A stretch of 43,689 nucleotides of DNA, from positions 1 to 43,689 of IMG/VR virus record IMGVR_UViG_3300045988_038444; one strand, written 5' to 3'. Positions 629 through 36,198 of this stretch are shown in pieces (the stretch's first letter is position 1; each line of letters begins with the position of its first letter). Under the pieces are notes generated by a model that saw nothing but the letters and a program-made list of their open reading frames with translations, did not search any database and had not been told where the DNA came from. The translations under genes and the position numbers were made by a program. Source of the stretch: a virus (taxonomy: Duplodnaviria > Heunggongvirae > Uroviricota > Caudoviricetes).

Positions 629-2485
629 ATGTCAGATGCTTACGTTCACGATATTGAAAACTATCCTAATGTTTTTCTGTTCGGTGCTATTCACGCGTTA
701 ACTGAAACACCTTATATTTTTGAGATTTCACATCGTCGCGATGATCGTCAGGCTTTTTACCTGTTCACAGAATATTTGCGTGAACATCGTGCTGAAGAAG
801 TTGGTTATAACAATCTGGGTTACGACTATCCTGTTCAGCATTCTATTTTGAACAACATCATGTATATCACCAACGCAGACATTTACAAAAAAGGTGATTC
901 GATAATTAACGCTGGTGATGAAAATCGTTTTGCTCATATGGTGTGGGAAAAAGACTGGATAGTTCCCCAACTTGATTTGTATAAAATTCATCATTTCGAC
1001 AATCAGGCAAAACGAACAAGTCTGAAAACACTTGAATTCAATATGAGAATGGAAAACATTGAAGACCTTCCGTTTACCCCAGGGACTTATTTAACCGATT
1101 CTCAAATTGATACGCTTCGTCAATATCTGATACACGATTTGAAAGCGACTTTGATGTTTTATAAACACAGTAAAAAGCTGATAGATTTTCGTCGTGAACT
1201 TTCTGCTAAATACGGTCGTAATTTCATGAACCATAATGACACGAAAATCGGTAAAGACTATTTCATTATGGAACTTGAAAAATCAGGTATTCAATGTTTC
1301 GAACCGTGTAGCAGAAAACCACGACAGACGCACAGACCATCAATCGCATTGAACAGTGTGATTTTCCCTTATGTCCGTTTTGAACAGCCTGAATTTAATC
1401 GTGTTCTTAACTGGTTACGTCAGCAGGTCATCACTGAAACAAAAGGTGTATTTACAGATTTAAGCGCAGACATTAACGGGTTCTCGTTTGATTTTGGTAC
1501 GGGTGGTATCCACGGGTCTATTGAATCTCAAACTATCAGGTCCACTGAAAATTATGTGATCATCGATCTGGACGTTGCCAGTTTTTACCCGAACCTTGCG
1601 ATCAGTAATGAACTTTATCCGGCACATCTGGGAAAACAATTTTGCACCATTTATAAAAATGTTTACGACATGCGTTCCAGTTACCCGAAAGGTACACCAG
1701 AAAATGCAATGTTAAAACTGGCGTTAAACGGTGTGTATGGTGACAGTAATAACGTATACAGTCCATTCTACGATCCTGCTTATACAATGGCTATTACGAT
1801 TAATGGACAGTTACTTTTGTGCATGTTGGCTGAAGAACTTCTGAAAATCCCTGGTTTGTCCATGATCCAGGCTAACACAGATGGTCTTACGGTTTACGTA
1901 CCACGAGTGTTTACCGGACAAGTAGAACAGGTTCGTCACGCGTGGGAAAAATTAACCAGACTCCAGCTTGAAGAAGCGATTTATGACGTGATGTTTATTC
2001 GCGATGTAAATAATTACATCGCTGTTTATGAAGGCGGTAAGAAAGTTAAACGTAAAGGCGCTTATTGTCACAGTGTTGATCTGGGTTGGCATCAAAACCA
2101 CAGTATGCAGGTTGTTGCAAAAGCGGCTGAAGCAGCACTGGTACACAATAAAGACATTCATGATTTTATAACATCACACGAAGACATTCACGATTTCATG
2201 TTAGTGACGAAAGTACCGCGTAACAGCAAGTTATTATGGGGTGATAAACAGGTTCAGAACATTACCCGTTATTACGTCAGTACAGATGGTGCACCTTTGA
2301 CAAAAGTCATGCCACCGCTGGCAAAATCACTGAAACTGAACCCTGATGCGCCTGAACGCCGCATGTCCGTGTGCAAAGGTTGGTTGACCACTGAGTGCAA
2401 CGACATGAAACGTTTTAACCGGGCAACGCTAAATTATGATTTTTACATCAAAGAAGCTGAAAAACTCGTTGCACCACTTCGGTAA
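629..2485 (+). CDS. Family B DNA polymerase, compact phi29-like (protein-primed type) with 3'-5' exonuclease motifs
   Basis: 618 aa. Motifs read directly: HDIENYP (Exo I DxE), YLIHDLKA (Exo III-like), DLDVASFYPNL (motif A, Dx2SLYPS-like), KLALNGVYGDS (motif B, Kx3NSxYG-like), ANTDGLTV (motif C-like). Confidence 0.7.
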   Translation: MSDAYVHDIENYPNVFLFGAIHALTETPYIFEISHRRDDRQAFYLFTEYLREHRAEEVGYNNLGYDYPVQHSILNNIMYITNADIYKKGDSIINAGDENRFAHMVWEKDWIVPQLDLYKIHHFDNQAKRTSLKTLEFNMRMENIEDLPFTPGTYLTDSQIDTLRQYLIHDLKATLMFYKHSKKLIDFRRELSAKYGRNFMNHNDTKIGKDYFIMELEKSGIQCFEPCSRKPRQTHRPSIALNSVIFPYVRFEQPEFNRVLNWLRQQVITETKGVFTDLSADINGFSFDFGTGGIHGSIESQTIRSTENYVIIDLDVASFYPNLAISNELYPAHLGKQFCTIYKNVYDMRSSYPKGTPENAMLKLALNGVYGDSNNVYSPFYDPAYTMAITINGQLLLCMLAEELLKIPGLSMIQANTDGLTVYVPRVFTGQVEQVRHAWEKLTRLQLEEAIYDVMFIRDVNNYIAVYEGGKKVKRKGAYCHSVDLGWHQNHSMQVVAKAAEAALVHNKDIHDFITSHEDIHDFMLVTKVPRNSKLLWGDKQVQNITRYYVSTDGAPLTKVMPPLAKSLKLNPDAPERRMSVCKGWLTTECNDMKRFNRATLNYDFYIKEAEKLVAPLR

Positions 2486-2524
2486 ACCGTATAGAATTAT
2501 TTAAAACTTATTGAGGCGATAACA

Positions 2525-3061
2525 ATGCATACTTCACACAAATTTGTAACTGGTTCACCGATTGGTGTCTTTACTCCCGGTAAAATTTACAACCGTGTTG
2601 ACGGGTTCACCCGTGACGGTCGTTCCCGTGGTTTTTATATTGATGACCGTGGTGAATTCCGTTTAACAGATGATGATATGTTCGAACCTGCAGAACAGAT
2701 CCAACTGCGTTTACCACAGATGCCAATGTTTCCGGCCCGTCAGGAACGTCTTAAACTGGCTGCACGCTGGGGAACGTCTGAAATCAGTATCAGTAACTGG
2801 TACAAAGTTGATGACCTGATGAAACCGTGGCGCATCGGTGACGCTATCTGTGGTACTCGTGTTCTTACAGAACCTAATACAACGACGTTTAAACCCGGTG
2901 AACTGGCTGAACTGGCTAATTCCCGTGGTTATCTGCTGTCAGAATTATCCGTTCGTTGGGGGTGGCATTATGGATGTGAAACTTTACACACTATCAGCAT
3001 GGATCCGCGTCGTGTTGCGCTTATCTGGGATATGTTAGAAGGAATGAATCGTCATGACTGA
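2525..3061 (+). CDS. Hypothetical protein
   Basis: 178-aa ORF, ATG start, packed in plus-strand operon. Confidence 0.5.
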   Translation: MHTSHKFVTGSPIGVFTPGKIYNRVDGFTRDGRSRGFYIDDRGEFRLTDDDMFEPAEQIQLRLPQMPMFPARQERLKLAARWGTSEISISNWYKVDDLMKPWRIGDAICGTRVLTEPNTTTFKPGELAELANSRGYLLSELSVRWGWHYGCETLHTISMDPRRVALIWDMLEGMNRHD

Positions 3062-13031: not shown

Positions 13032-13519
13032 GCGTTATTTAAGAGTAAGCCAGTATCAATAATTTCTTTAAGGTAACAAGCAGCATAATCACCCTGGCAT
13101 TTAGTGATTAACAATCGTGATGCCATTGCACAACGGTCGATTACCGGAACAGCTTGTAACTGTAAATCGACAGATCCTTTCCATCCTACAACAGAGGATG
13201 AAGGGTTACTGACAATCTGAACAACGTGTTCCTGAATCAAACCGTTCACAAACAGTTGCATCACAAACCGCTTACTACCTTCAGCGATTTCCAGATTATA
13301 AAAATCGTCCCACCACTGAAGCATCGCCGGACTATATAACTGAATTGTACACGATACCTGAGCAGGTCCACCAAAGGCGCTACGACCTAACCGTGATAAC
13401 GTCCCGGAAACATCAGATTTAGTTACACCCCACGGTGGGCTATAACTGTAATTATCACGCTCAGGTAACACCATTTTCGCGCCGTACTCAAGCCGTGGTA
13501 AATCATCTGTATTGCTCAT
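13016..13519 (-). CDS. Minor or distal tail protein (putative)
   Basis: 167-aa ORF immediately downstream of tape measure gene. Confidence 0.4.
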   Translation of the reverse strand: MSNTDDLPRLEYGAKMVLPERDNYSYSPPWGVTKSDVSGTLSRLGRSAFGGPAQVSCTIQLYSPAMLQWWDDFYNLEIAEGSKRFVMQLFVNGLIQEHVVQIVSNPSSSVVGWKGSVDLQLQAVPVIDRCAMASRLLITKCQGDYAACYLKEIIDTGLLLNNAWTPE

Positions 13520-16101
13520 TATATTTTCCTGTTCGCATCATAGTTAGACCTGAACGCTTTATTCGTCTGACTGTACGGGTCATTCCATTGTGCCGCTGAT
13601 TGTCGTGGGAATTCTTCACCTATGATAAGCACTACGTCATCCCGTGTTAATCCTTGTTTCACCTGAACACGTTCGCCACCGTAGTTATGAACCTGAATAT
13701 TAGGTGATGAACCACCTTCAGATCCGGGGGTGTATGTCCCACGATTCATTGCTTCCAGAGTGCTACGATAACGACTCGTAGCCTGTTTGGTACTGACAAA
13801 TTCACCATTACTCAAACGTGCGTTTATACTGTCACTCTGACCTGTACCCGGACCTTTAACATAACCACCCGTTGCAAAACCTGTTGCGGCCACAGACTGA
13901 ATGTTACCTAACACGCTTGTCCCGTATGATAAAGCCTGTGCAATGAACGGAATATTCGCCGGGAACGGCAACGCCATAGCCTGACTAACGGCTGTCCACA
14001 GGTTAATACTCGCCTGTGCGATACTAAAGGCTTTAGACAGTGCAAACATCGCTTTATATGCGTTTGATTGCTCACCTTTAGATTGTGCCAGACCAGCAGC
14101 CATTTGACCCAAAAAATCAGCACTGGATTGTAGCAACAAGCTGTAGTTAGCATTTGCAAGATTCATACGGGCTTGTTCCCCGGCCTGTTGAATCTGCGTT
14201 TTCATGTCCTGGTATTGTTGCTCGTTAATTAAATCTTGTTCACGGGCTTGTTGTATGACAGTAAGGCGTTGTGCTTCCTGTTGATTAACCTGATCAACCT
14301 GTGATTGATACGGGTTTAACTCACCCTGTACATCGGTTTGTACCTGTGAAACCTGACCAGCTAACTGTTGCGCCTGCTGTTGACGTTGCAATGCAGCCAC
14401 ATGTGCATCAACAGCGGCACGTTCAGCATCAGTCGCGTCTTTATTCAGTCGTGACTGTGCTTCTGCCTGTTGTGATGCCAGCGTTAACTGTTGACGTACC
14501 TGATATTCTTTCTGATATGTTGCTGTAAGTTGTTCAACAGACGACCCCTGTGTTAAGGCAATCTGAACCTGTTCACGGGCTAACTGAACATCATAATTAC
14601 CAGCATTGATTTTATCCTGAAGCGTTTTCAGGTATTTCTGGTTAGCAGCCTGATTACGTTCCAGTTCTTTCTGTGCACGTTTAGCCGCAGATGCTTCAGC
14701 ACTCGCTGATTTCTTCTGGTTTTTTTGATTTTCTTTATATTCTGCCTGTTGTTTCAACAACGCAGCATAGTCTGCAATCTGTTCCTTAGTTGCTTTATTA
14801 CCCAGTTTCTGACTTGCTGCCAGTTCATAGTTACCGTCAGCAAGCGCCTGGGTGTAGGTGATCTGTTCTTTCAGGTTTTTAATCTGTTTTTGTGCTTTCG
14901 CGTCTGATGCATTTGTCCCTTTTATAGAAATAGGTTTTGTAGCATCACGGTTTTTTTTAGCTTGTTCGTATCCAGCCGCAGATGCTTTAACAAATCTATC
15001 AACCTGGTCATTGTACGCTTTTGCATTATTTACATCATCGTTTGACCAGACCAGATCAGCAAGGGATGCCCCAGTAGCACCTGGTTGTAACTTAGATATT
15101 ACGCCAGCTATTGACCACAATTTATCAGCAGTTGTTGAATCATCGCCTAATTTATTGATGAAACCTGTAAGTGTATCAATAGCGTTTACAGCAAGATTTG
15201 ATGCTCCAGTCACGTCATTCATGCTTGCAACAAGCGTGGCTAACGATACAGATAACGAATTCGTAGCTTGATCTAAAGACCGTGGCAATTTGCTAAATTC
15301 TTCATCAACATTTTGCGTTTGACGAATAATAGCATTCAATGCTTGTTCCGCTGTGAGTTCACCATCCAGCATTTGCTGACGTAACTCACCCATTGAAACA
15401 CCTAAACCAGCAGCCATCTGTCTTGCCAGTTCTGGCATCTGTTCAACAATGCTGTTAAATTCTTCCGCACGAACTACACCAGATGAAATTGACTGACCAA
15501 ACTGACGTAATGCGTTAGACATTTCTTCAGCAGATGAACTACCAACACGACCTATTTTTTGAAGTGTTTCAGTTAATCGTAATATCTGATCGTTTGTTGC
15601 GCCGCTATCCTTTAATGACGATGATAAGGTTTCCCATAAACGTTCAGTATCAGCAAGACCACCACCTGTTTTAGAGGCAATATCCGCGAGTGTTTGAAAT
15701 GTTTGTTCGGCTGATGATGTACTCCCGGTCAATCTTGCAATACGAGCTTCGAGTTGATTAGCTGCATCACCCGCAACAATAAACGCTTTTCCTAACTCAA
15801 TAGCAGAAGACACCGCACCTATTGCCATAAAACCACGAACGGCGTTTGTTGCAAGATTTACGCCAGATGCCATCGACTTTAAAGATGATGTAGCGTTACC
15901 AGTATTTGACGCCATTACTTGTGCAGATTTTGCAGCTTGCTGTTCACTTTTTGATAAAGTGTTTGCCGCTTGTGCAGCAGATTTTGCAGAATTAGCTGTT
16001 TGGTCTAACTGGTTATTAAGGCTGTTAAGATTTCTGTCAGCGTTACCAGTGTCTATTTTTATATCAATCGGATACTGTGCCATTGTGGTTAACCTTTTCA
16101 C
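13519..16101 (-). CDS. Tail tape measure protein
   Basis: 860 aa, long low-complexity alpha-helical Q/A/E-rich sequence, downstream of tail chaperone genes. Confidence 0.75.
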   Translation of the reverse strand: MKRLTTMAQYPIDIKIDTGNADRNLNSLNNQLDQTANSAKSAAQAANTLSKSEQQAAKSAQVMASNTGNATSSLKSMASGVNLATNAVRGFMAIGAVSSAIELGKAFIVAGDAANQLEARIARLTGSTSSAEQTFQTLADIASKTGGGLADTERLWETLSSSLKDSGATNDQILRLTETLQKIGRVGSSSAEEMSNALRQFGQSISSGVVRAEEFNSIVEQMPELARQMAAGLGVSMGELRQQMLDGELTAEQALNAIIRQTQNVDEEFSKLPRSLDQATNSLSVSLATLVASMNDVTGASNLAVNAIDTLTGFINKLGDDSTTADKLWSIAGVISKLQPGATGASLADLVWSNDDVNNAKAYNDQVDRFVKASAAGYEQAKKNRDATKPISIKGTNASDAKAQKQIKNLKEQITYTQALADGNYELAASQKLGNKATKEQIADYAALLKQQAEYKENQKNQKKSASAEASAAKRAQKELERNQAANQKYLKTLQDKINAGNYDVQLAREQVQIALTQGSSVEQLTATYQKEYQVRQQLTLASQQAEAQSRLNKDATDAERAAVDAHVAALQRQQQAQQLAGQVSQVQTDVQGELNPYQSQVDQVNQQEAQRLTVIQQAREQDLINEQQYQDMKTQIQQAGEQARMNLANANYSLLLQSSADFLGQMAAGLAQSKGEQSNAYKAMFALSKAFSIAQASINLWTAVSQAMALPFPANIPFIAQALSYGTSVLGNIQSVAATGFATGGYVKGPGTGQSDSINARLSNGEFVSTKQATSRYRSTLEAMNRGTYTPGSEGGSSPNIQVHNYGGERVQVKQGLTRDDVVLIIGEEFPRQSAAQWNDPYSQTNKAFRSNYDANRKI

Positions 16102-16217: not shown

Positions 16218-16397
16218 ATGGCTACTTTCATCATTCTTTTCTTAATCGCTGCTGTATATCTGATCCCAGCACTCATCGCGATTAACGTTAAACATAAACA
16301 ACAAACAGCAATTATTTTACTTAACATCTTTGCGGGTTGGACATTCGTCGGTTGGTTAGGTGCGTTAATCTGGTCTGTGTTAAAAAGCGACAAATAA
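16218..16397 (+). CDS. Superinfection-immunity-like small membrane protein (59 aa)
   Basis: Below track cutoff. ggagag RBS; MATFIILFLIAAVYLIPALIAINVKHKQQTAIILLNIFAGWTFVGWLGALIWSVLKSDK matches my recollection of the Imm_superinfect family pattern. Confidence 0.55.
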   Translation: MATFIILFLIAAVYLIPALIAINVKHKQQTAIILLNIFAGWTFVGWLGALIWSVLKSDK

Positions 16398-16398
16398 G

Positions 16399-17310
16399 AT
16401 GAGTAGGAAACGTTTAACCACAGAAGAGTTTATCACGCGTGCCCGTGAAGTTCATGGGCACAAATACGATTACTCACTAGTGGAGTATTTGAATTGGCGC
16501 ACACCTGTGAAAATCATCTGTCCTATACATGGAGTGTTTGAACAAATTCCTAATAATCATTTAAAAGGACGCAAGTGTTTATTCTGTGCAGGAAATCAAC
16601 AATCAAATACCAATGAATTTATCACAAGGGGGCGCGAAGTTCATGGGGGTAAGTATGGTTATTCGTTGGTGAAATATAAAGACTCTCGGACCAAAGTGAA
16701 AATCATTTGTCCAATACACGGAATGTTTGAACAACGTCCATATAGTCACTTGCAGCAAAAAGCAGGTTGCCCACAATGTGCTTGGGAACAATTGTCTGAA
16801 CAAAGACGTTTATCCGCCGAAGAATTCATTACTCGTGCTCGCGAAGTTCACGGGGACCGTTACGACTATTCGTTGGTGGAGTATGTTAACAATTCCACCC
16901 CTGTAAAAATTATTTGTTCAGAACACGGTGTGTTTGAACAGACACCGGGCAATCACACATTTATGAAAGCTGGCTGTCCCCAGTGCGCTGAAACAGGTTT
17001 TAATCCGTCAGAACCCGGCACGTTATATGTACTCGCTGATGATAAACAGTATCCCACTCTGATTAAAATTGGTATTACAAACGACTTAAAACAGCGACTA
17101 CGACAACTACAACGACGAACTCCGCATCTTGTGGTTAAACTTGTATCGTATCCGTTCCCACATGGCGCTGACGCTTACAAACTGGAACAAGAGGTACACA
17201 AGGTCTTTCACGAACTTAATGCGCGTCTCAAAGGCTTTGACGGTGCTACAGAGTGGTTTAAATACTCTCCTGCAATCCTCGATTACATAAATGAAAAAGC
17301 CCGGAACTAA
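16399..17310 (+). CDS. T5orf172-domain (GIY-YIG-like) protein with three N-terminal zinc-ribbon-like repeats; homing-endonuclease-like
   Basis: Three ~60-aa repeats EEFITRAREVHGxKYDYSLVEY...PVKIICPIHGVFEQ...GCPQC; C-terminal YVL...KIGIT...TEWF matches the T5orf172 pattern. Confidence 0.65.
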   Translation: MSRKRLTTEEFITRAREVHGHKYDYSLVEYLNWRTPVKIICPIHGVFEQIPNNHLKGRKCLFCAGNQQSNTNEFITRGREVHGGKYGYSLVKYKDSRTKVKIICPIHGMFEQRPYSHLQQKAGCPQCAWEQLSEQRRLSAEEFITRAREVHGDRYDYSLVEYVNNSTPVKIICSEHGVFEQTPGNHTFMKAGCPQCAETGFNPSEPGTLYVLADDKQYPTLIKIGITNDLKQRLRQLQRRTPHLVVKLVSYPFPHGADAYKLEQEVHKVFHELNARLKGFDGATEWFKYSPAILDYINEKARN

Positions 17311-17330
17311 CCGGGCTTATGTTTATTTTT
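17299..17330. terminator. Rho-independent terminator (gcccgg-aactaa-ccgggc plus T-rich tail)
   Basis: Hairpin overlaps the stop codons of convergent genes 16399..17310 and 17307..17591. Confidence 0.55.
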
Positions 17331-18025
17331 CTTCATCTCGACAACACGTGCAGACCGCAATGCTGTTAACAATTTCCATAGGAACTGTACATCAACGTTG
17401 TACACCCGTGCGTAACGTTCACAGGCAACCCAATCACTATTTATCAAATCAAGATAAGCATACCAATAAAAAACAGCATCAGGTCGCAATTCAGGACGTT
17501 TCTGTACAACAACCGGAACAGATATACCACGTGCAGCCGCCCCTTGTGTAACCCAGTCCAGGTCGTCCCCGTCTGTCTTATCGTTCCACAAGAGGAAGTC
17601 GATCAGTTTTTTTCAATCTGTTTTTCCCATTCGTCCTGGAAGAATGCGGAATTAATTGCGAACTGAATAACACGGCTGTAGATCACCTGACCAAAACGTT
17701 CATCACTTAACAATTCAATAGCTTCTTCGACACTGAATGGTTCCGGTTTGTCATCTTCACCAATCAGTTTCCAGTCCAGCATAAGAACGTTAGCCACAAA
17801 CTTAACACCTTCTGGTGTATATTCCTGATTCCACAGTTTTTCAAAGAAGTTTTCAGACAACACACCGTTCTGTTTTACATAGTCCGCGACTGTTACGTTA
17901 TATACCTGGTTAGCGGTGTTCAGGTTCAACACGGTGATACTGAAATTTTCATTTAAAATCAGTTCAGCAGAAGACTTCAGCACCAGTGGAGAAAGTGCTT
18001 TTTTCAGATGGTCAAACTTTGACAT
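17307..18025 (-). CDS. Tail assembly chaperone fusion (GT-like) made by -1 programmed frameshift
   Basis: Minus-strand GAAAAAAAC with heptamer A_AAA_AAC at 17606-17612 just before the G stop; the -1 frame continues KKLIDFLLWNDKTDGDD..., matching track ORF 17307..17591. Confidence 0.55.
17603..18025 (-). CDS. Tail assembly chaperone (G-like)
   Basis: 140-aa acidic protein immediately upstream of a slippery run and the overlapping T-like ORF. Confidence 0.6.
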   Translation of the reverse strand: MSKFDHLKKALSPLVLKSSAELILNENFSITVLNLNTANQVYNVTVADYVKQNGVLSENFFEKLWNQEYTPEGVKFVANVLMLDWKLIGEDDKPEPFSVEEAIELLSDERFGQVIYSRVIQFAINSAFFQDEWEKQIEKN

Positions 18026-18091: not shown

Positions 18092-18136
18092 TTTAAAATA
18101 ATTCTTGACGAATTACATCTGTTAAGGTATCTTTAA
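18092..18136 (+). promoter_or_regulatory. Conserved early promoter copy (-35 TTGACG 18105-18110, -10 tatctt)
   Basis: gatttaaaataattcttgacgaattaca. Confidence 0.7.
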
Positions 18137-18165
18137 CTCAACGAAACGAACTGAGGGTAAGAGGG

Positions 18166-18486
18166 ATGGCGATTATTAACATGGGTTGGCATAGTTCTGT
18201 TTTTGAAGGAAATGTTAAACTCCTGGAAGGGGCATATAGTCCTATCCATCGTAATGATATTGGTGGCGATTACCCACCATCTTATTTTCTATACGAAACT
18301 GATCATGGGTGCTGTATCAAAGAACGTGAACGTAACGGTTACCATGATTCAGATTTTGAAATGTTAATATGGAACCCTGAAACAAAAAAGCGCTTCATGG
18401 TATACATTTGCAACTACCCGTGGTTGGTGTTATCCATGCTATGGTTCACGCCCAGATGCAACACCAGAAGTTTTAGAAGCATATAA
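18166..18486 (+). CDS. Hypothetical protein (frame-1 part of a possibly frame-split gene)
   Basis: 106-aa ORF after the promoter; an overlapping frame-2 ORF continues to 18790. Confidence 0.4.
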   Translation: MAIINMGWHSSVFEGNVKLLEGAYSPIHRNDIGGDYPPSYFLYETDHGCCIKERERNGYHDSDFEMLIWNPETKKRFMVYICNYPWLVLSMLWFTPRCNTRSFRSI

Positions 18487-18790
18487 TATTTATGAACAAC
18501 AGCAAGAGGAAAAACGGCAACGTTATTGCAAAATAAAAAGAGTAAACAAGCAACGCAAACTGAACGCACAGTTTAGATTAATAGTACGTGAATTTGGTGT
18601 TGATCGCGAACAAGTTGAAAAACTTTATAAATTATATCACCCAGATATGTTCCCTGTATTTTGTAAACTTCTTAACAGTAATTTACGTTCTGATTTCCGT
18701 AAAAGTTTACGTAAACAACTAGTTGATTGGTTAAAAGGGAACGGTAAGTACGATAAACCATTTTCACCTAAACAAATTCAGTATTTATGA
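18368..18790 (+). CDS. Frame-2 continuation ORF with no start codon (possible frameshifted 3' part of the 18166 gene)
   Basis: 140 sense codons from stop at 18365-18367 to TGA 18788-18790; no ATG/GTG/TTG near its 5' end; A6 run at 18384-18389 in the overlap. Confidence 0.3.
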   Translation, partial: YGTLKQKSASWYTFATTRGWCYPCYGSRPDATPEVLEAYNIYEQQQEEKRQRYCKIKRVNKQRKLNAQFRLIVREFGVDREQVEKLYKLYHPDMFPVFCKLLNSNLRSDFRKSLRKQLVDWLKGNGKYDKPFSPKQIQYL

Positions 18791-18791
18791 A

Positions 18792-18819
18792 TAAAAAAGC
18801 CCCGGTTTAACGCCGGGGC
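18792..18819 (-). terminator. Rho-independent terminator after the major tail protein gene
   Basis: gccccgg-tttaacg-ccggggc hairpin followed on the minus strand by a T6 run. Confidence 0.6.
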
Positions 18820-18839
18820 AACCACTACCAACCACCATG

Positions 18840-20297
18840 TCATGCTGTAGGCAGATATGGGAACAAGCTGAACCCAATCATAAAACCGATCGACTCTTCT
18901 TCGTGGGCGTTACCGCTAACAGTGACTTTCACTTTTTCGCCCGTCACAAGGTTTTTGGAACCGTCGCCCAGTGTCATCGCAGGAATGTTAACCACGATTG
19001 CACCGTCACCGTTTACCCCGGCAAGTTCGAAGTTGACTGTTGCGTTGTTACGGATCGCAGCCAGTACAGCACCGTCTGTCATCACCGTTTCAGTTTCCAT
19101 TGTGATTTCCAGGTTACCGATGTTGGTAAACGCAGCACCCATCACGCCCAGCACGTTTTCACCTGACACGTTGTTATTCACGGTGACAGTAACGTCTTTC
19201 AGGAACGTACTGAGTCCACTATCATCGATCCCGGTCAGTCGTACACGGTTCAGGTTCGTTACGGTGTTGTACGCTTCGTTAGCCACGAATTCAACATACC
19301 CGGAACCCGGCAGCGCGGTTTCTGACGGTGCTGATAAATCCTGTGCTACAAACGTCAGATCCATTGTCATTTTTTCAGTCAACGGTGCGTTGATCGTCAT
19401 CTGGTTTGCAGCTACAGCACGCGCATATTCATAAATAACAGGTGTCGTGTTGTAACGTACTTCCATTGTGTATTCAGTTTTAACGAACTCTGCAGAGTCA
19501 ACAGGAACGTTTCGAACAAAACTGGAAACAAATAAACGTACAGTTTTACCCGTACCTTCTTCAGTGGTGAATTCACTGTTAGCGAGAGTCAGAATATGAT
19601 CACCAACCATAGTCACACGGGCCATTTTACTGGTTACGGACTGTGTTAGACCATCAATATAAACATACTGTCCCGGTACTAAACCCAGTGTGGAAAAATC
19701 CAGGGTGGTAGACGTCAACTGACCATTACTGTTAACAGCGATTTCACCAGACGCTGCAGCATGCCCCACGAGATATAAACGAGCTTCAGCAGGCGGTGAC
19801 GCTTCGGCACTAAGCCCTGACACGTTGATAGCAGTAGTGGTACTATCAGCGCCTACAGTTTTCAAACCGTTGTTTGCAGCCAGTGTAAAACCTGTCGCAT
19901 AAACAAGAGCACCTTTAGGTAATGCCGCATCAAGAGTAGTAACGTTATAAGCATCAGCGCCAACACTGGTAACGTCAATATCAATTGCACCAGCACCGAC
20001 CCATTTACTATAAAGGAATCCGTCACCCCAGTAGCGGAACGTATCAAGTGTCAGGTCTGTCTGAAAGCCCGGTGCAACTTCAACGTTAGTTACCGTGCCT
20101 TTACGTGCAGATCGGTCCGTACTGATCGGTGTACGCTGAGTCTTTGTAATATCAGCACTGTAAGAACTGATTTCATTCGGTTGTTGAACCGTCCAGGGTG
20201 TACCAAAAACAGGTTCACAGACTTTTGCCACACTGAGTCGTGTTGCGTTTACATCAGTCGCAGGTGTTTGCGAACATTTAAAAATTGATTCAGCCAT
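18840..20297 (-). CDS. Major tail protein (putative)
   Basis: 485-aa Thr/Val/Gly-rich beta-type ORF upstream of the chaperones and followed by a terminator; assignment by position. Confidence 0.5.
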   Translation of the reverse strand: MAESIFKCSQTPATDVNATRLSVAKVCEPVFGTPWTVQQPNEISSYSADITKTQRTPISTDRSARKGTVTNVEVAPGFQTDLTLDTFRYWGDGFLYSKWVGAGAIDIDVTSVGADAYNVTTLDAALPKGALVYATGFTLAANNGLKTVGADSTTTAINVSGLSAEASPPAEARLYLVGHAAASGEIAVNSNGQLTSTTLDFSTLGLVPGQYVYIDGLTQSVTSKMARVTMVGDHILTLANSEFTTEEGTGKTVRLFVSSFVRNVPVDSAEFVKTEYTMEVRYNTTPVIYEYARAVAANQMTINAPLTEKMTMDLTFVAQDLSAPSETALPGSGYVEFVANEAYNTVTNLNRVRLTGIDDSGLSTFLKDVTVTVNNNVSGENVLGVMGAAFTNIGNLEITMETETVMTDGAVLAAIRNNATVNFELAGVNGDGAIVVNIPAMTLGDGSKNLVTGEKVKVTVSGNAHEEESIGFMIGFSLFPYLPTA

Positions 20298-20759: not shown

Positions 20760-21181
20760 TGATTAAACCTCACCATTATTCCGGCTTTTAATATAGCACG
20801 TTCGACAAACCCGGAAGGTGTCTGTGTACTGCTACCACCATTGAGAACCCCAATGTAAGGAACGTTGTTAGTAATATGCAGTTCCTGACCATTAACTTTA
20901 ATACTGCTGATAGTGACTGTATCCTGTTCGATACGTGCTTTACTGGCTTCAACATTACCTGTTGGTGTATCAGGACTATTAGCGGGTTGCCCCTGATCGA
21001 ACCACCAGTTGTTGCTTGCCCAGCCACTCAATATTGGTGTACCATCAGGAGGCTCACTTATGAGTATGTTACGTAGTGTTAAAACATATCTAATGACTTG
21101 ACGATCCGTAAAATCTTGTAAGTCGGCTTTTATGTCTTTAAACACTCCAGTAATACGATTTATATCATTGATTTTGCTAGT
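20756..21181 (-). CDS. Head-tail joining protein (putative)
   Basis: Track ORF 20756..21250; start moved to internal Met 21181 (MTSKINDINR...) because the 5' extension collides with the divergent plus gene. Confidence 0.35.
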   Translation of the reverse strand, partial: TSKINDINRITGVFKDIKADLQDFTDRQVIRYVLTLRNILISEPPDGTPILSGWASNNWWFDQGQPANSPDTPTGNVEASKARIEQDTVTISSIKVNGQELHITNNVPYIGVLNGGSSTQTPSGFVERAILKAGIMVRFNQ

Positions 21182-21206
21182 CATTGACAAACCTAAAGGT
21201 AGAAAA

Positions 21207-22103
21207 ATGGGCGGTAAAAGACTAACCAAAGAACAACTAGAGCATAACATAAAAGATATTTGTCAATCAAAAAATTACAAATTTATAAAATGGAAAGACG
21301 GGTTTAAAAACAAAGAATCACGAATTATTTTATCTTGTGTTACACACGGGGAATGGGACACTAAATGTTATCATTTTTTGAATGGTTCTGGTTGTCCGAT
21401 CTGTGGTGGAACACGAACCACAAAAGGGTTAAGAATTGCACAGATTAAAGACAGTTTAACAAATTCTAAATCAAAGTTTATTAAATTTAAAACTAATTTT
21501 CAAAATGGAAATTCTGTTTGTTTGCTGAGCTGTATTGATCATGGTGGATGGGAGACAACAGTCAATAGACTAATCTTTACATCTGTTGATTGCCCGTTGT
21601 GTATAACGAATAGACAGAAAACTAAACAAGAACGAGAAATTGAAATAACAAATAGATGTAAAGAAACAGGGTTGTTTTTTAATAAGATATTCGACGAACA
21701 TCCGACATGGAAATCTAAAATATCATTAAAGTGTTCAACGCATGGTGATTTTGTTACAACAATTAATTCTTTTCTTAGTAAACAAAAAGGTTGTCCAAAC
21801 TGTAGTAAAACAGGGTTTAAAGCTGGTAAGTATGCAACACTTTATGTCTTGCGGTCCACATGCGGTCGTTACGTTAAAATAGGTATCAGTAATTGTGTAG
21901 AGCAAAGAATTAATACACTTCGTAGAAAAACACCATTTGATTTTCAAGTAATAGAAAAATTGAATGGACACGGGGCAACCATTCGTTCACTTGAAAAAGA
22001 TTTTCATTCTCATTTTGAATCTGCAGGATTAACCGGGTTCGATGGTTGTACAGAGTGGTTAAAATGGAATCCAAATATAACCACTCTGATACGGATGTTA
22101 TAG
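21207..22103 (+). CDS. T5orf172-domain (GIY-YIG-like) protein with zinc-ribbon-like repeats, second copy
   Basis: Start taken at ATG 21207 (MGGKRLTKEQ...). Repeats with HG...GCPxC modules and C-terminal TLYVL...VKIGIS...TEWLKW. Confidence 0.65.
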   Translation: MGGKRLTKEQLEHNIKDICQSKNYKFIKWKDGFKNKESRIILSCVTHGEWDTKCYHFLNGSGCPICGGTRTTKGLRIAQIKDSLTNSKSKFIKFKTNFQNGNSVCLLSCIDHGGWETTVNRLIFTSVDCPLCITNRQKTKQEREIEITNRCKETGLFFNKIFDEHPTWKSKISLKCSTHGDFVTTINSFLSKQKGCPNCSKTGFKAGKYATLYVLRSTCGRYVKIGISNCVEQRINTLRRKTPFDFQVIEKLNGHGATIRSLEKDFHSHFESAGLTGFDGCTEWLKWNPNITTLIRML

Positions 22104-35895: not shown

Positions 35896-36051
35896 ATGGA
35901 ATACATGTACATTGCTTTCTCACTTCTGTTAATGATTGTTGTCGTTATTACAACTGAGAAAAAAAGAACAAGGTGTGATGGGTTTAGCAGTTGCTCTGAT
36001 TCGTGTTCTTTCAATCATGTTGCTGGTAACCAGTTTTTCAATTGCTTTTGA
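35896..36051 (+). CDS. Small membrane ORF (frame-1 part of a possible frame-split membrane protein)
   Basis: MEYMYIAFSLLLMIVVVITTEKK...; an A7 run at 35954-35960 separates it from the overlapping frame-2 ORF. Confidence 0.3.
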   Translation: MEYMYIAFSLLLMIVVVITTEKKRTRCDGFSSCSDSCSFNHVAGNQFFNCF

Positions 36052-36172
36052 CATCGTGGAATTACAAAGCGATTATTACGGTTTTGTGAAACTTCAACAT
36101 CAGTTGACATACGCCGTCATATTCGGTTTAGGTTCTGTTAGCCTCGCTGTTCTTTCATCTTTCAGACATTGA
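35978..36172 (+). CDS. Small membrane protein
   Basis: Track ORF 35936..36172; hydrophobic MGLAVALIRVLSIMLLVTSFSIAF and AVIFGLGSVSLAVL. Confidence 0.4.
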   Translation: MGLAVALIRVLSIMLLVTSFSIAFDIVELQSDYYGFVKLQHQLTYAVIFGLGSVSLAVLSSFRH

Positions 36173-36198
36173 AAAAAAGCCCCGGACAGTTCCGGGGC
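36172..36198 (-). terminator. Rho-independent terminator after the large terminase gene
   Basis: Minus strand GCCCCGGA-actg-TCCGGGGC followed by T7. Confidence 0.6.

Follow-up and report, generated by a model that had tools for sequence, protein, structure and literature searches.

Dispensable genes of phages or bacteria that have become frameshift pseudogenes, through a one-base change in a short homopolymer run while relatives keep the gene intact, are among the closest described parallels to the locus analyzed here. Other systems that invite comparison change frame at A-rich sites during expression: the heptamer A_AAA_AAG is that of the −1 frameshift site of Escherichia coli dnaX, a −1 programmed frameshift (G/GT) is known for the tail assembly chaperones of long-tailed phages, and efficient transcriptional slippage typically involves runs of 8–9 nt or more. 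The locus in question lies in a metagenome contig of 43,689 bp, which is called the window throughout, in its whole length. There, at 18166–18790 on the plus strand, a reading frame is broken at a run of six A's, and the remainder of the gene continues in another frame.

Comparison with related phages suggests, with a probability of roughly 0.7, that the allele is a recent loss-of-function mutation, private to this genotype, which arose in a dispensable gene by expansion of an A run by one A. The cassette would normally encode one protein of 207 aa; the addition of one A to a run of five (A5), most likely through replication slippage, would shift the frame at codon 75, within a conserved domain, and leave a truncated product of 106 aa whose function would be lost. 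Intact relatives do differ from the window in the length of the run, and the sequence removed is conserved and under selection, as in homopolymer frameshift pseudogenes. There is no difference in kind from that class, only that secondary degradation is not yet present; the frameshift is an ordinary one, of an already known kind. The first-pass annotation had considered a recent inactivating mutation, a sequencing error, and programmed or transcriptional slippage; the first is favored by the analysis described below, the second is less likely, and the third can be rejected.

The gene and its intact orthologs

By its sequence, the window is a contig of a Sashavirus (9NA-like) siphophage. The region of the split gene matches the Salmonella phages Sasha, Solent, and Sergei at 97%; further matches are several Escherichia and Klebsiella relatives, all of them again Sashavirus/9NA-like siphophages. 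The gene is located between those for the tail chaperones (17307–17591 and 17603–18025) and that for the tail tube protein (18840–20297), on the strand opposite to the tail genes, which occupy the minus strand together with the gene for the tape measure protein (13519–16101).

Frame 1 opens with the ATG at 18166 and encodes 106 aa (18166–18486). Frame 2 stays open over 140 codons, from 18368 to a TGA at 18788–18790, and a start is absent near its 5′ end. That the two frames overlap around the A6 run (AAAAAA; 18384–18389), and that both belong to one gene split by a frameshift, had been proposed from the letters alone and was confirmed. When one base of the run is skipped, the sequence ...NPETK is joined to SASWYTFATTRGW... 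and a protein of 207 aa results, compared with an earlier estimate of ∼205. The part of the gene beyond the run (18389–18790; codons 75–207 and the stop codon) has no start codon of its own, matches intact alleles in their 3′ part without any difference, and is represented in the output of gene callers only by an ATG-initiated ORF of 47 aa (18647–18790). The 106-aa product consists of native codons 1–74 of the 207-aa protein followed by 32 out-of-frame codons up to the premature stop, and exactly this product is on record for the genotype of the window only.

The fused reading fits the family phrog_30881 from end to end (positions 1–207 of 207, E = 1.7e-152, with the Sasha ortholog as the query), and a word-indexed search returned 37 homologs, every one a single protein, most of them 196–225 aa long. 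As the fused reading matches both the family and its single-chain members, the overlap of the two frames is not due to chance. One uninterrupted CDS of 624 nt is annotated for each of three orthologs: gp43 of Sasha (APU92799.1), CPT_Solent_055 of Solent, and S10a_00089 of Klebsiella phage VLCpiS10a. They occupy the same slot as in the window, again on the opposite strand, and are flanked by the same signals; they differ from the window in that the 207-aa protein is intact and that the site has A5 or no run at all, in contrast to the A6 run and premature stop of the window. An uninterrupted single ORF was likewise found in the relatives L017 and L018 and in ten further loci (see below). None of the relatives examined carries two separate genes at this place, the observation that would have spoken against a single split gene, and the comparison of orthologs that the first-pass annotation had proposed thus gave one ORF, with A5 or without a homopolymer at the site.

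Within the gene, alignment of the window with Sasha or Solent shows a single indel, the A6 versus A5 difference. In VLCpiS10a (ACACAATCA) and in the lineage of L016 and L017 (AAAATCA), the site has no A run, and the frame continues through it. With one A removed, the gene of the window is identical to that of L018 (624/624) and differs by 2 nt from that of Sasha, the protein of which differs by two amino acids; the VLCpiS10a gene is 77% identical at the DNA level. The repaired protein corresponds exactly to P0182, found on at least 23 metagenome contigs from many samples. Where these loci were examined, 10 out of 10 had A5, and nine were nucleotide-identical to the repaired gene, with flanks that were only 95–98.8% identical to the window. 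Judged from these alignments, the extra A is a private and derived state in an otherwise invariant cassette. The 624-nt gene is also nucleotide-identical in phages (L018 and L032–L041) whose flanking tail genes differ by 1–5%; identity despite diverged flanks suggests that the cassette was recently spread horizontally among Sashaviruses, by recombination.

Signals, composition, and distribution of the cassette

Upstream of the cassette, a consensus scan found a sigma-70-like promoter match on the plus strand (TTGACG-17 nt-TATCTT; 18105–18133). It scores 9 of 12, shuffled sequences give as many such matches, and the sequence is largely kept in the alignment with Sasha, Solent, and VLCpiS10a; it is put forward here as a candidate promoter by way of suggestion only. 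A Shine-Dalgarno-like sequence of the GAGGG type, GAGGGTAAGAGGG, precedes the ATG directly (18153–18165, plus strand), and a ribosome-binding site is annotated at the equivalent position in the Sasha and Solent records. On the minus strand, a GC-rich hairpin with a T run behind it (18799–18819) resembles an intrinsic terminator, which ends the tail-tube gene and delimits the cassette; again, a terminator is annotated at the equivalent place in Sasha and Solent.

The GC content of the cassette (0.36–0.385) deviates from that of the flanking genes (0.44–0.50). The slot is empty in seven relatives (PJ16, L014, L015, and L019–L022), and in Bas82 and L013 it contains an unrelated gene of 87 aa. Since relatives have an empty slot, another gene, or the 207-aa gene at this place, the cassette is a dispensable, moron-like accessory element. 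Its opposite orientation, deviant composition, and presence or absence among relatives are those of a moron-like cassette, with promoter and terminator recognizable at the consensus level only.

Conservation of the protein and consequence of the frameshift

An exhaustive profile search yielded 1,626 cluster representatives, mostly of 170–250 aa, 1,139 of them at E ≤ 1e-10. No match for the family was obtained in Pfam, NCBIfam, or PADLOC. The ratio dN/dS, compared among the window-type, L017-type, and VLCpiS10a genes, was 0.03–0.09 in the fused frame, irrespective of whether codons 1–74 or codons 75–207 were considered.

Thirteen positions are invariant (G48, E55, N57, D61, S62, D63, W69, F81, A82, T84, R85, D97, and A98). 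The AlphaFold model of P0001, a stand-in 88% identical to the repaired protein of the window, has a pLDDT of 86.8 and predicts an N-terminal beta domain (strands 40–45, 50–55, 63–70, and 75–83) followed by long helices. All invariant residues fall into the beta domain, the C-terminal part being helical. The shift at codon 74/75 is placed between the last two predicted strands of this domain, and 6 of the 13 invariant residues (F81, A82, T84, R85, D97, and A98) are removed. With the conserved domain cut and these residues lost, the 106-aa product is very unlikely to work; on grounds of sequence, it is almost certainly nonfunctional, and conservation suggests that the function of the gene is lost. 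In annotation, 18166–18790 should accordingly be treated as one disrupted gene (a pseudogene or a possible error) and not as two to three small ORFs or as a recoding site. The family of the intact gene is phage-only, comprises ∼1,600 clusters at 50% identity, and lacks a Pfam model; having no solved structural relative but a confidently predicted fold, it may merit functional study.

A real insertion or a sequencing error

If the extra base were a sequencing or assembly error, the phage would truly have A5, the gene would be intact, and the sixth A would stem from homopolymer miscalling or low coverage. This is the most serious alternative to a private mutation, although an unlikely one. A length difference of one base in a homopolymer is the classic type of error, and the complete identity of the rest of the gene to intact alleles (624/624) fits an artifact as well as a very recent mutation; because secondary degradation has not yet set in, the event is either very recent or an artifact. 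The A6 run is, however, common to three assemblies produced by different pipelines: the JGI contig itself, a Logan assembly of SRR2565813, and an ENA MEGAHIT (k141) contig. The Logan contig (6,917 bp) and the MEGAHIT contig (889 bp) are each 100% identical to the window. Their agreement excludes an artifact of the assembler, not a systematic read error, and the three may share the sample or the reads. Consistent with such sharing, L007 and L009, both derived from SRR2565813, match the window over 14.7 kb at 100% identity. Six A's are, on the other hand, a short run for systematic short-read error.

How error-prone the contig is was assessed by comparing the ORFs of Bas82, Sasha, and PJ16 with the window by tblastn and counting isolated homopolymer indels. 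Between the window and each relative, two to six were found, compared with zero to three between relatives, from which no excess is concluded. Only two conserved genes are split in the window, the one at 18166–18790 and one at 35896–36172 (plus strand). The latter encodes a protein of 91 aa with three transmembrane segments, equivalent to Sasha gp11, Bas82_0007, and PJ16_019; a run of A7 at 35959–35965, which is A6 in relatives, divides it into ORFs of 51 and 78 aa. The same A7 is present in L012, which was assembled from a different run (SRR17681049) and represents a strain 98.4% identical to the window. As it also occurs in this distinct strain, the A7 is inherited and a real allele. The notion of a generally error-ridden contig was therefore rejected, the only other coding frameshift being itself genuine. 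At and just past the stop of this 91-aa gene, a further A run (36172–36178) exceeds that of Bas82 and PJ16 by one A.

Because the three assemblies agree and homopolymer indels are not in excess, a real insertion is favored over an error. The extra base in the split gene is, thus, probably real, and replication slippage is its probable mechanism.

Other frameshift alleles of the same gene

Natural Sashavirus populations contain two frameshift alleles of the gene: a change from A5 to A6 at codon 74–75, in the window, and one from A7 to A6 at codon 124–125, elsewhere. In the second, the run at nucleotides 369–375 of the gene is shortened, and a product of 125 aa results. It was found in L016, from an ENA metagenome (2240–2862, minus strand), where a remnant ORF of 70 aa follows, and in L030/L031 (3001–3630, plus strand), a phage contig in the E. 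coli isolate assembly GCA_021031555.1 (ERR5751948). The two copies of the gene are 2% apart. The 125-aa product retains the entire conserved N-terminal domain. As some members of the family (P0030–P0037) combine the same domain with a different C-terminal part, the 125-aa form may, from its sequence, still be functional.

The existence of this second allele in two gene backgrounds raises the question of whether A-tract frameshifts are favored by selection in some hosts, or constitute a crude form of phase variation, such that the allele of the window would be one OFF state of a gene that is recurrently lost or switched. Selection could act if the protein is costly or triggers host defense. The gene is indeed rich in A runs (6.4 runs of A5 or longer per kb, compared with 3.8 A or T runs per kb across the window), and its slot varies by presence and absence among relatives. 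Yet, given this A-richness, recurrent hits by slippage are unsurprising, and truncated alleles are rare: besides that of the window, they account for 2 of 38 sequences in the cluster of the intact gene. Moreover, the 125-aa allele, which keeps the N-terminal domain, is not clearly an OFF state. Tracts of five to seven A's are short for true contingency loci, and a phase-variable contingency locus was rejected, the tracts here being 5–7 nt long and A6 occurring in one genotype against at least 23 contigs with A5. Recurrent loss or switching under selection is therefore considered doubtful, and the bolder form of the idea, in which slippage at several A tracts repeatedly turns off a widespread phage protein, is more doubtful still. 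Were it true, the frameshifts would point to escape or to adaptive loss, with the protein as a candidate defense trigger or counter-defense factor.

Evidence against recoding at the A run

Regulated expression in which full-length protein is made from the A6 template, through programmed ribosomal frameshifting or through transcriptional slippage at this run, is highly improbable, because the two-frame layout is confined to one genotype, the A run lacks conservation, and the −1 frame is dead. Some features do bring recoding to mind. The zero frame at 18384–18390 reads A_AAA_AAG, the dnaX heptamer; re-pairing of tRNA-Lys in the +1 direction, from AAA at 18385–18387 to AAA at 18386–18388, would restore the exact WT sequence ETK-SASWY, as would the rare loss of one A by slippage of RNA polymerase. 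A −1 slip on the heptamer would, however, enter frame 3, which is closed by a stop after 29 codons, so that the −1 frameshift suggested by the heptamer was rejected. The downstream ORF requires +1, and the next codon in the zero frame, AAG, specifies ordinary lysine and is neither a stop nor rare. By inspection, no Shine-Dalgarno-like stimulator is present upstream of the slip site, and the RNA of 18376–18470 folds at −21.9 kcal/mol, a value matched by 42 of 200 shuffled sequences (z = −0.79). The window thus shares the heptamer with the dnaX-type site but differs from it in its dead −1 frame and in having neither an internal Shine-Dalgarno sequence nor a hairpin; moreover, the heptamer arises in the window only through the insertion and is missing from relatives.

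Conservation provides the most decisive argument against recoding: the two-frame layout is missing from all relatives, which have one ORF, with A5 if they are close and without a run if they are distant. In conservation, in the direction of the slip, and in the stimulatory element, the site is unlike a programmed frameshift site, which was rejected on these grounds. The same applies to a transcriptional slippage site, for which a long and conserved run of A or T would be expected; the run of the window has six A's, is A5 in close relatives, and is interrupted in VLCpiS10a, L016, and L017.

This phage does have a genuine programmed −1 site, that of the G/GT tail chaperone, ∼770 bp away. Its heptamer, A_AAA_AAC, is located on the minus strand (17612–17606) just before the stop codon of G and joins the ORF at 17603–18025 to the ORF of the T part (17307–17591), which continues in the −1 frame. 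The records of Sasha and Solent annotate this chaperone as the product of a frameshift. The two-ORF layout of the chaperone recurs in metagenome relatives, whereas the A6 site of the split gene is private and breaks a conserved domain.

Further variable features of the contig

Two other cassettes are inserted in opposite orientation into the tail module of the window, both on the plus strand. The first (16218–17310) encodes a superinfection-immunity protein of 59 aa (PF14373) and a DUF723/T5orf172 (GIY-YIG-like) endonuclease of 303 aa, the ORF of which overlaps the end of the chaperone T ORF. The second (21132–22103) encodes a CapR/T5orf172 endonuclease of 323 aa and forms a patch of very low GC content (0.31–0.35). 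Both endonuclease cassettes are present or absent depending on the relative, similar to insertions of the homing-endonuclease type.

The tape measure protein also varies. It has 860 aa in the window (with a GTG start) and 855 aa in Bas82 and PJ16, compared with 971–1069 aa in Sasha and other relatives; given these sizes, tail length probably differs between these otherwise close phages. Finally, the contig starts with tandem direct repeats of a 30-nt period (1–312), corresponding to the “direct tandem repeat region” annotated within Sasha gp63, and their copy number varies among relatives (12-nt indel blocks compared with Bas82 and Sasha).
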